A stretch of 64,000 nucleotides of DNA, taken from the NCBI GenBank assembly GCA_965213625.1, contig CBDBZU010000004.1, forward strand, positions 704,001 through 768,000, written 5' to 3'. Source of the DNA: a bacterium (GTDB lineage: Bacteria; UBA8248). Made by a program: the position numbers and the translations under genes. Shown one piece after another: positions 13,668-16,361 of the stretch. The notes under the pieces are model-generated. The model saw only the letters and a list, made by a program, of their open reading frames with translations, ran no database searches and was not told where the DNA came from. Each line of letters begins with the position of its first letter. Positions within the stretch are counted from its first letter, which is position 1.

Positions 13668-14273
13668 TCAAGAAGGCAGGGGCACGTCTTTTCCGTAAAT
13701 CTGCTCGGACTGTTCTTGCGTCACGGGGTTTCCCTCCGGATCGTGGAGGGGATAGACCTTGAGCGTGCGCATGAATACCTGAAGGCCATAGTGAAGCGCC
13801 ACCATTGCGCCGAGTTCCATGATCTGCGCTTCGGTGAAATGCTTCTTGCCCTCGTCGTAGAATTCATTGTCCAGCTTTGCGGCGTCTCTGTACATCAAAT
13901 AGGAAAAGCGAAGCGCCCACTTCTCGGCGTCTGAGAACTGCGGGTCGTTCTCGAAATCCCCGCAGGCGGCCTCGATGCGCTCCTCGGTGAGGCCTTCTTT
14001 TTTCGCCTGCTCGGAGCGCAGGTTCGCAAAGTAGGTGTCCTGCGCGGTTCTGGCGAGCTGGATGCGGACCATCTCCTTGAGCTTGTGGTCCACCCCGCCC
14101 ATGGCGTGGGAGCGGTGCATGGCGTCGTGCAGGGCGGCGGCGTAGCCGGGTGCATGGGCCATGATGCGCGAGAACAGTTCATCGGGCGCCTGGGTCTCGG
14201 CGGTGCGCCCCATGACGCGCTTCCAGTCCTTCTCCTCAACCCCTTCCGGTTCGAGCGGTTCGATAATCGGCAT
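13668..14273 (-). CDS. AhpD/carboxymuconolactone decarboxylase-like protein lacking the CxxC motif (DTYF)
   Basis: DHKLKEMVRIQLAR..QDTYFANLRS, FSDAEKWAL, HFTEAQIMELG; colinear with the upstream paralog. Confidence 0.8.
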   Translation of the reverse strand: MPIIEPLEPEGVEEKDWKRVMGRTAETQAPDELFSRIMAHAPGYAAALHDAMHRSHAMGGVDHKLKEMVRIQLARTAQDTYFANLRSEQAKKEGLTEERIEAACGDFENDPQFSDAEKWALRFSYLMYRDAAKLDNEFYDEGKKHFTEAQIMELGAMVALHYGLQVFMRTLKVYPLHDPEGNPVTQEQSEQIYGKDVPLPS

Positions 14274-14282
14274 TTCGTCCTC

Positions 14283-14945
14283 CTAGCTTCCGCCTGCCTG
14301 TTGCGCCTCGCCCTCTTCGATCGCGCGAGCGAGCGGTCCGCTCAGGTGCGAGACGGGGCAATCGCCATAGATGCGCCGCGATTCCTCCTGGCTCACCAGC
14401 CTGCCGTCGGGGGAGAACATGGGGTAGAAATCGAGCGTTCTGAAAAAGGTGTGGTAGCCCACGTTGAAGCCGATGAAAGAGCCGAGTTCCACGATTTCCT
14501 CGTCCGAGTAGTGTTCTCTTAGCCTCGCGTAGAAGGCCTCGTCGATCTTCTCGGGCTCGGAATCCATGAGTTCGCTGTATTCGAGAGCCAGTTTTTCGGC
14601 GTCGGAGAAATTCTCGCTGTCGCGCCAGTTGTCGATGCCGTCGTCTATCAACTCTTCCGTCAGGCCCGCCTGCTTCGCCGAAGCAGAACGCACGTTCCCT
14701 CAGTAGTTGCAAAAGGCGCGGCGCGATAGCTGAACACGGATGATTTCTTTCAACTTGTGGTCGATGACGCCGGTGTTGAACACCGTGCCCCAGGCGAGAT
14801 ACATCGATTTCGCCAATTCCTCGTTGTGACCCTGCATGGCGTGAAAAGCGGGATCGGGCGCGCGGTGCTTGAGCGCCTTGTTGAGGAAAGGTGCCAGCTT
14901 CGTCTTCTTCAGATCCTCGATGTCGAGCATGGTGATATTGGACAT
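14283..14945 (-). CDS. AhpD/CMD-like selenoprotein, CxxU motif (TGA 14700-14702 read as Sec), 220 aa
   Basis: ORFs 14700..14945 and 14283..14693 are in frame: TGC AAC TAC TGA GGG AAC GTG = C-N-Y-U-G-N-V; the joined protein aligns end to end with the adjacent paralog. Confidence 0.88.
14670..14686 (-). promoter_or_regulatory. candidate bacterial SECIS hairpin
   Basis: CTGCTTC-GGC-GAAGCAG, 7-bp stem starting 14 nt after the TGA; loop G at +21. Confidence 0.7.
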
Positions 14946-14993
14946 ATGTGTTCTCCCAAAGATGACGTACAGGATGAATTTTCGGTTATCGCC

Positions 14994-16361
14994 TCAGGAT
15001 CCGCTTTCCGCCTGAACGCGGCGCAATGCGGTGTCGAGAACAGATGCTGCACGCTCGGCTTCCTCTTCGGTGAATACGAGCGGCGGACTGAGGGTCACGG
15101 TGTTCGAGGGTCCTGCGGCGATGCCGGCATTCTTACCGAAGATCACGCCTTGCTCTTTCGCATAGGCCAGGACCTTCGCCGTGGCCGCTGTGGAAATGGG
15201 CGAGCCGTCTTCTTCAATCAATTCCACGCCCCAGATGAGGCCCACACCTCGCACGTCGCCCACGCAGGGGATGTCCGAGAGTTTGCCCAAAAGCCCGCCG
15301 AGATAAGCACCCACCTTGGCGCCGCGCGCGGGCAACTCCTCGTCCATCATGATCTCGAGGTTCTTTAGCGAGGCAGCACAGGCGGCGGGATGTCCGCCAT
15401 AAGTGTTTATCTGCAGGAACCCCGAATCGCCCTCGGCGTTCAAGGCTTCGAATATCTCGTTTGTGGTCGCCGTCGCCCCGATGGGGAGATAGGCGCTACT
15501 CAGCCCCTTGGCCATTGTCATGATGTCCGGCTCGATTTCGTACAGATCGGAAGCGAACAACTCCCCCGTTCGCCCGAAGCCGGTGATGACCTCATCGGCG
15601 ATGAACAACACGCCGTGGTTCCGGCAAACCTCGCGCATGCGCTTCAGGTAATCCGCAGGCGGGGGGATCACCCCGCCGCCGCCGATGACGGGCTCTGCGA
15701 TGAACGCCGCCACGGTCTCGGGGTCTTCGTAGCGGATGACCTCATCCAACTCATCCGCACACCTGCCGGCGAGTTCTTCTTCCGTCTCCGCGTTGCTGCG
15801 GTAGAAATAGGGCGCGCTGACGTGAATCACGCCCGGCAGGAGCGGCTCGAACATCGCACGCCTGAGCGTTTGGCCGGTGAGACTCGCGCCCCCGATGGTC
15901 GCTCCGTGATAGCCCTGGTGCCTGGCGATGATCTTGTATCGACTCCCGCCGTTCAGTCGCCCGTAGGCGCGGGCGATCTTGATGGCGGTGTCCACGGCTT
16001 CTGAACCCGAGTTCACGAACCAGACGCGCTCGACCCCCTCAGGCAACAAGGATGCGAGGCGCTCTGCGAGCCTGGCTGCGGGAGGATTCACCTGCGTCAG
16101 CGGATAGTAGGCCAGCTCGAGCATCTGGTCGTACGCCGCCTTGGCGACCTCATCGCGCCCGTATCCGATGTTCACGCACCAAAGGCCCGCCATGGCGTCG
16201 ATGTATTCCTTGCCGGAGGCGTCCTGTATGGTCGAGCCACTGGCTTTGACCACGACATCGAGGGGATTTCCCTCAATCCCGGAATGGTTCATGAGCGGAT
16301 GCCAGACGTGCTCCTTGTCCATCGTCCGCAGGGATTCGGCTTCGGCTATGGCTGGATTCAT
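14994..16361 (-). CDS. class III PLP aminotransferase (omega-amine:pyruvate type)
   Basis: YID.MAGLWCVNIGYG, NSGSEA, YHG.T, FIADEVITGFGRTG, MAKGLSSAY.P. Confidence 0.92.
   Translation of the reverse strand: MNPAIAEAESLRTMDKEHVWHPLMNHSGIEGNPLDVVVKASGSTIQDASGKEYIDAMAGLWCVNIGYGRDEVAKAAYDQMLELAYYPLTQVNPPAARLAERLASLLPEGVERVWFVNSGSEAVDTAIKIARAYGRLNGGSRYKIIARHQGYHGATIGGASLTGQTLRRAMFEPLLPGVIHVSAPYFYRSNAETEEELAGRCADELDEVIRYEDPETVAAFIAEPVIGGGGVIPPPADYLKRMREVCRNHGVLFIADEVITGFGRTGELFASDLYEIEPDIMTMAKGLSSAYLPIGATATTNEIFEALNAEGDSGFLQINTYGGHPAACAASLKNLEIMMDEELPARGAKVGAYLGGLLGKLSDIPCVGDVRGVGLIWGVELIEEDGSPISTAATAKVLAYAKEQGVIFGKNAGIAAGPSNTVTLSPPLVFTEEEAERAASVLDTALRRVQAESGS

Follow-up and report, generated by a model that had tools for sequence, protein, structure and literature searches.

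A 64,000-nt stretch of a bacterial genome (GTDB lineage Bacteria; UBA8248; assembly GCA_965213625.1, contig CBDBZU010000004.1, positions 704,001 to 768,000), which we call the window, contains two adjacent genes for related proteins of the AhpD/CMD type. The first gene encodes a selenoprotein with a CxxU motif, where U is selenocysteine (Sec), and we refer to its product as the Sec subunit. The second gene encodes a paralog, the twin, in which the motif reads D-x-Y-F. We consider it probable that the two proteins form a two-subunit AhpD-type selenoenzyme, that is, a hetero-oligomer in which the Sec subunit is catalytic and the paralog has no redox role. A preliminary description of this locus had proposed a three-gene system that also included the aminotransferase gene just upstream; comparison across genomes indicates that only two of these three genes make up the conserved unit. 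CxxU AhpD-like selenoproteins themselves have been known since 2005, but an obligate D-x-Y-F partner for one is apparently unpublished.

We used the twin as the seed for two scans of contigs from one genome per species. The scans returned 21 loci and 80 loci (the best 80 of 412 matching stretches), which gave 81 loci, and single-linkage clustering of these at a twin p-distance of under 0.25 gave 27 lineage groups. A Sec-type paralog was found immediately upstream of the twin, on the same strand, in all 81 loci (in two of them it is truncated by the end of the contig). Each of the 79 complete copies has an in-frame TGA, within the motif C-[NVSR]-Y-U-G-N-V-R-S. The co-occurrence of the tandem pair in other genomes, which the preliminary description had raised as a question, holds across the 27 lineage groups. 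The loci represent seven or more named taxa (Nitrospinota, Tectomicrobia, Rhodospirillales/Rhodospirillaceae, Defluviicoccus, Burkholderiales/Betaproteobacteria, Acidimicrobiia, and SAR324), and their proteins are 64-96% (Sec subunit) or 51-97% (twin) identical to those of the window. In most loci, the stop codon of the Sec gene and the start codon of the twin overlap or are at most ~50 nt apart. In three Nitrospinota loci (L067, L068, and L069), one more CMD-like match is found 2-4 kb downstream of the pair, with 25-28% identity to the Sec subunit.

A cysteine form of the Sec subunit was found in none of the 79 complete loci and was not present among the database matches listed. At least seven “full-length” database matches have tryptophan at the Sec position, which we take to be the result of a gene caller reading TGA as tryptophan. 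Nearly all of the other matches listed are fragments that start past the TGA, or else fused forms that are described below. The exception (P0179, 181 amino acids) is a chimera: its first ~70 residues resemble the Sec subunit, and the remainder, starting at the shared L-K-E-I-I-R, is a D-x-Y-F twin. A deletion between the two paralogs, or else a faulty assembly, would give such a sequence.

The distribution of the pair is patchy. The Sec subunit (E ≤ 1e-40) is present in 12 (~8%) of 151 genomes from the order that surrounds one alphaproteobacterial holder, with the TGA in all 12, as compared to 22 of 22 other genomes of the window's genus. The distance matrices of the Sec subunit and of the twin are correlated (Mantel r = 0.86; none of 999 permutations were as high), and we do not count this as co-evolution because shared ancestry alone would yield it.

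Comparative evidence indicates that the TGA is a genuine Sec codon. The frame of the Sec gene is open across 220 codons only if the TGA is taken as a residue. We rely on the presence of the Sec machinery in the genome and on compensatory changes in a SECIS-type hairpin just after the TGA. The genome encodes selA (564 bits), selB (388 bits), selD (333.5 bits), and tRNA-Sec (75.9 bits), all above the curated cut-offs. As for the hairpin, 99.3% of 448 cells (64 distinct sequences from other genomes) are paired. One stem position alternates between U-A (39 sequences) and C-G (24 sequences), with one U-G intermediate, so that 24 cells have a double change; this covariation was reached by none of 500 shuffles. 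The compensatory pair joins the silent third position of a serine codon to the second position of a Gln/Arg codon. The folding of the single sequence (81 nt around the TGA) was no better than for shuffled sequences (z = -0.62, not significant), so the case for the hairpin rests on the comparative count. A search of the region against Rfam matched no family. The genome's own selD (G000:C4:1518852-1519814, outside of the window) also has an in-frame TGA and would encode a Sec-containing selenophosphate synthetase. Eight more CMD-like matches with an in-frame TGA are found elsewhere in the genome, which together with this selD points to a selenoprotein-rich organism.

The Sec subunit and the twin are 37% identical over 199 residues (E = 5e-46). 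The alignment includes the C-terminal tail, so they do align over their full length, as the preliminary description had stated, and it was also right that the twin has lost both redox residues. On the other hand, the twin is not “motif-less,” as that description had it, because it has a conserved motif of its own. Among the 81 loci and the window, D79 and F82 are each conserved in 81 of 82 twins, and Y81, R86, S87, E97, and E117 are each conserved in all 82. A broader search found 612 homologs of the twin (E ≤ 0.001), and nearly all of the 120 that were listed have D-x-Y-F. (We also sought longer homologs of the twin, and found only the uninformative P0250, with 363 amino acids and 42% identity, on a 1.2-kb contig. 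Matches in the ESM Atlas were to unnamed CMD clusters only.) The twin and the Sec subunit have the pocket residues His63, Glu67, Arg70, Tyr81, Arg86, Ser87, and Glu97 in common. In these alignments, the site is retained in the twin and only the cysteine and the Sec are swapped (C to D and U to F).

The twin is intact in all 81 loci. Within the genus, dN/dS has a pairwise median of 0.134 in the twin, as against 0.085 in the Sec gene and 0.084 in the aminotransferase, with 189-190 pairs for each gene. The value for the twin, which the preliminary description had named as a check, indicates purifying rather than relaxed selection. On these comparisons, the twin is a conserved partner on which purifying selection acts.

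In SAR324 and some Betaproteobacteria, the pair forms a single fused reading frame. In a locus from SAR324 (L088), there is no stop codon of any kind from the TGA of the Sec gene to the stop codon of the twin, which gives an open frame of 437 amino acids with one TGA. Also, among the database matches listed, there are 13 proteins in which the end of the Sec subunit is joined through a low-complexity linker of 50-90 amino acids to a D-x-Y-F domain (D-x-C-F or D-x-H-F in 3 of the 13). Two of these have linkers of the SAR324 type and the other 11, including two that are named as Betaproteobacteria, have a different type. Because the linkers are unlike each other, we infer that there were two or more independent fusions. 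Other loci from Burkholderiales retain the stop codon, with 37-163 nt between the genes.

To place the pair in its family, we consider a tree built by maximum likelihood from 79 Sec subunits, as many twins, and 10 CxxC relatives. The Sec subunits and the twins are each monophyletic (support of 0.81 and 1.0, respectively), and together they form a clade against the CxxC relatives (support of 0.99). Just outside of the Sec-plus-twin clade are two stand-alone genes with C-S-Y-U, L126 (G025:C91:3499-4044) and L127 (G029:C76). They share 47-48% identity with the Sec subunit and come from two genomes of the window's class or order, and no twin was found on the 6-7 kb that were fetched around them. 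The simplest history that would fit the tree is that a stand-alone CxxU protein underwent one tandem duplication and that one of the copies then fixed D-x-Y-F; after the duplication, the pair would have spread as a unit and at times become fused. The genome with L127 also has a member of a distant subfamily (L128, G029:C23, ~3067-4188, minus strand), in which a C-E-H-U domain and a Cys-less CMD domain share a 395-codon frame with a single TGA. Because of this frame, we conclude that tandems of a catalytic and a dead domain recur in the CMD fold.

We propose the following mechanism for the two-subunit enzyme, in which the physical binding of the Sec subunit to the twin, the reaction, and the role of D-x-Y-F are all inferred. 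By analogy to AhpD, Sec82 would attack an oxidized substrate, and Cys79 would then resolve the adduct to form a selenenyl-sulfide, which a cellular thiol reductant would recycle. In M. tuberculosis AhpD, a glutamate lies 12 residues ahead of the first cysteine, the second motif position is the attacking residue, and His137 is at the position of the arginine of the Sec subunit. Glu67 is likewise 12 residues ahead of Cys79, and Arg86 stands in place of the AhpD histidine. The type of reaction (the reduction of a peroxide, a disulfide, or another electrophile) is assumed from the fold. The twin would derive from one old tandem duplication; it retains the fold and most of the pocket residues, with Asp and Phe fixed where the Sec subunit has Cys and Sec. 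The hetero-oligomer would thus be descended from a homo-oligomer and would have one redox site (Sec82 and Cys79) per pair, with the D-x-Y-F subunit as a structural or substrate-binding half.

A hetero-oligomer fits the data because the two genes are strictly adjacent and are fused in two lineages. The combination of strict co-occurrence (81 of 81 loci) and fusion (L088 and the 13 database proteins) is how we would recognize an enzyme with a non-catalytic paralog. Several points weigh against this reading. The loci were fetched via the twin, so that the presence of the twin is by construction (the presence of the Sec partner is not). The fold does not need a twin-type partner, as the related CxxU proteins L126 and L127 occur without a twin. 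The hairpin overlaps the invariant peptide S-A-S-A-K, so much of the constancy of its stem is due to protein coding. No conserved redox partner or substrate-related gene was found near the pair, either at 18 distant loci or across the 27 lineage groups. Finally, the adjacency and the long flexible linkers of the fusions would also fit two enzymes that act in sequence. In that scenario, no complex would form: the twin would catalyze a non-redox reaction of the CMD type (as a decarboxylase or isomerase-like enzyme that uses Asp79, Tyr81, and His63), and a redox step on the same metabolite would fall to the Sec protein. The CMD family (PF02627) does take its name from a decarboxylase, the site of the twin is conserved rather than decayed, and a long low-complexity linker can tether two domains without proving that they are in contact. 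We nevertheless think that sequential enzymes are unlikely, because apart from the two replacements the pocket of the twin is that of the Sec subunit, and because there is no conserved pathway context around the pair. Also, the deposited entries for solved members of the fold contain 2 to 12 chains each, which fits assembly but does not show it. Another idea is that the twin is a duplicate that is redundant or in decay, or else that it serves as a backup isoform free of selenium. Neither redox residue remains in the twin, and its dN/dS lies somewhat above that of the Sec gene, but a dN/dS of 0.134, 81 intact copies out of 81, and a D-x-Y-F that is fixed over 27 lineage groups already refute decay, and a backup isoform would have kept the cysteine; we give this idea next to no credence.

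The three-gene system of the preliminary description, in which the aminotransferase acts in one pathway with the selenoprotein and the twin, also seems quite improbable to us. In the window, the three genes are co-oriented, and the 48-nt gap between the aminotransferase and the Sec gene has no convincing terminator. Similarly, the aminotransferase is upstream of the pair in all 19 loci of the genus-level group and in 8 other loci of the Nitrospinota/Tectomicrobia type (64-74% identity). But if we search for the aminotransferase within the 6 kb that were fetched (using tblastn, with E ≤ 1e-5 and over 150 amino acids aligned), it is present in just 27 of 81 loci, or 3 of 27 lineage groups, all of the Nitrospinota/Tectomicrobia type, and is lacking in the other 54 loci and 24 groups. 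At L067 and L069, it is separated from the pair by ~2 kb. Other loci have unrelated neighbors instead, such as an aromatic amino acid lyase, a hydantoinase (with DUF1989), a cupin, a short-chain dehydrogenase/reductase (SDR), or AhpC/TSA. Because the aminotransferase is confined to 3 of the 27 groups, we place it outside of the conserved unit, and on these comparisons it is a lineage-specific neighbor only. The gene order in the window's genus (CoA-transferase, dienelactone hydrolase, FAH-family hydrolase, aminotransferase, Sec gene, twin, ammonium transporter) is conserved by relatedness. We also searched for any other third gene, by comparing 107 flanking open reading frames (ORFs) from 18 distant loci to Pfam and by clustering 1677 flanking ORFs (some of the ORFs that were picked are spurious and antisense, as at L075). 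No family of neighbors in the 1677 clustered ORFs was common to more than 7 of the 27 groups. The families seen were SDR (7 groups), FAH-family (5), hydantoinase (4), MFS (4), HMGL-like (4), and family-III CoA-transferase (3).

The arrangement of the locus is given in Table 1. The three co-oriented genes followed by a terminator, and the 9-nt spacing between the Sec gene and the twin, are as the preliminary description had reported, with all three genes on the minus strand. The hairpin of the terminator has 8 G-C pairs and lies 22 nt past the stop codon of the twin. Both proteins are barely above the cut-off of 23 bits for Pfam's CMD family (26.2 bits for the Sec subunit and 24.3 bits for the twin). 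Two RNA libraries (X1 and X2) contain contigs from relatives (85-95% alike): a 684-nt contig covers 14136-14815 and a 330-nt contig covers 14038-14366. Both of these cross the junction between the Sec gene and the twin, although such contigs do not prove a single transcript.

Table 1. Features of the Sec gene/twin locus, with positions numbered from the first nucleotide of the window.
Feature	Position	Strand	Support
Class-III (omega-type) aminotransferase, 455 aa	14994-16361	-	Pfam Aminotran_3, E = 5.4e-96; NCBIfam NF005812, 498.8 bits (cut-off 488)
Sec gene (AhpD/CMD-like selenoprotein), 220 aa, C79-N-Y-U82-G-N-V-R-S	14283-14945	-	Translation with TGA as U; Pfam CMD
UGA selenocysteine codon, residue 82	14700-14702	-	Same column in 79/79 complete loci; Sec machinery in genome
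SECIS-type hairpin, 7-bp stem, GGC loop, starts 14 nt after the UGA	14670-14686	-	Comparative pairing count
Spacer GAGGACGAA, 9 nt, with GAGGA ribosome-binding site, from TAG of Sec gene to ATG of twin	14274-14282	-	Sequence reading
Twin (non-redox paralog), 201 aa, D79-T-Y-F82-A-N-L-R-S	13668-14273	-	Translation
G+C-rich hairpin terminator, usable from both strands	13627-13646	n/a	Terminator scan; A-run before and T-run after the stem

An ORF of 270 amino acids (12728-13540, minus strand), located in the interval from the terminator to the ammonium transporter gene, has a weak match to GIY-YIG / group I intron endonucleases (TIGR01453, E = 4.5e-6). Two members of the genus (L046 and L047) have this ORF at 86-87% identity and four others retain only fragments of it, while the remaining members lack it; it resembles a mobile gene of the homing-endonuclease type. 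The window also contains an rRNA operon at 1-5296 (minus strand), with 23S rRNA (cut by the edge of the window), tRNA-Ala, tRNA-Ile, and 16S rRNA.

A more specific version of the two-subunit enzyme would be a selenium-obligate heterodimer, in which the D-x-Y-F pocket binds the substrate and presents it to the sole Cys-Sec site. The chemistry would be something that cysteine does poorly, such as a reductive dehalogenation (as in deiodinases or Bmp8) or the reduction of another hard electrophile. This would explain why no cysteine form was seen in the 79 complete loci, among the database matches listed, or in the 12 positive genomes (of 12) from the alphaproteobacterial order. We regard it as a long shot.

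To judge by the Global Ocean Sampling (GOS) survey (PMC2398784), CxxU AhpD-like proteins rank with the most common selenoproteins predicted for bacteria of the ocean. The subfamily described here seems to depend on a redox-dead paralog and to lack a cysteine form; if this is the case, then expression or assays of the selenoprotein alone would be misleading. Public annotations truncate the Sec gene at the TGA and describe the twin as hypothetical, which would hide a two-subunit enzyme. The stand-alone sisters, the split pairs, and the fused forms might make up a natural series that leads from a homo-oligomer to an obligate hetero-oligomer.

To compare the pair to known systems, we considered both structures and sequences. 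AlphaFold2 models of the Sec subunit (pLDDT of 84) and of the twin (pLDDT of 94.2) both have an AhpD-like fold, and the Foldseek matches of both include Bmp8, the AhpD protein PA0269/PaAhpD, AhpD from D. radiodurans, and mlr4105. Bmp8 (PDB 6ohi and 6ohj) is the top structural match of both models (TM of 0.63-0.75) and the best PDB sequence match for the profile of the twin (E = 3e-9). It is of similar length (~190 amino acids) and has C-x-Y-C, but this is a likeness only, with 17-20% identity, and no halogenase, carrier protein, P450, or other bmp-type genes are near the pair in the window or at 18 distant loci. (The debrominase Bmp8 is covered in a review, PMC7918430.) The best PDB sequence match of the Sec subunit is PA0269/PaAhpD (PDB 2ijc, 2o4d, and 7xw1; E = 7e-8), whose C-A-Y-C-V-N-M-H aligns with C-N-Y-U-G-N-V-R. 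PA0269 differs in that it is a single gene for a protein of 145 amino acids with CxxCxxxH. AhpD from M. tuberculosis (PDB 1knc and 1gu9) has the helical AhpD fold in common with the models, but with a TM of only 0.38-0.50. Its CxxCxxxH motif is absent from the pair, as Arg86 aligns with the histidine of PA0269 and the twin lacks both cysteines. The preliminary description had noted that both proteins have arginine in place of the AhpD histidine. This is correct (Arg86) but it is not distinctive of the pair: the nearest CxxC relatives read C-E-Y-C-G-N-Q-R-S and similar, and because they also have R-S, the arginine is general in this branch. As to a pairing with AhpC like that of M. tuberculosis AhpD, AhpC/TSA was found in none of six flanking genes in the window and was upstream of the pair in 1 of 18 distant loci (L122).

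Among the families in NCBIfam, the best match of both proteins is NF053654 (“YciW-related (seleno)protein”), over ~125-170 positions, where the Sec subunit scores 67.9 bits and the twin 42.7 bits. Because these scores are far under the cut-off of 310 bits, neither protein is a member. TIGR01926 gave 38.9 bits, below its cut-off of 81.8 bits, and no NCBIfam model covers either the Sec subunit or the twin.

The closest known proteins are the CxxU AhpD-like selenoproteins of marine bacteria. In the available text of a 2005 study of the Sargasso Sea, a CxxU “AhpD-like protein” is represented by 27 sequences (COG2128; PMC1088965). The GOS survey of 2008 describes “AhpD-like 1/2,” in the part that was available, and counts 299 Sec forms and 902 Cys forms of AhpD-like 1 (PMC2398784). 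A 2026 review has several AhpD-type entries; its available sections mention only the co-location of Prx-like proteins with AhpD-like ones, and still describe the exact functions of such AhpD-like selenoproteins as unknown (PMC13188914). We found no description of a Cys-less partner for a CxxU AhpD-like selenoprotein in the literature, supplementary files excluded. Insofar as these sources could be compared, their proteins resemble the Sec subunit in having the CMD/AhpD fold, Sec at the second position of CxxC, and a SECIS hairpin with a G in the loop, and the hosts are likewise marine and other environmental bacteria. The same sources, in the parts available, treat these proteins as single genes with many cysteine homologs, whereas at the loci described here no cysteine form was found and the selenoprotein is always followed by a D-x-Y-F paralog.

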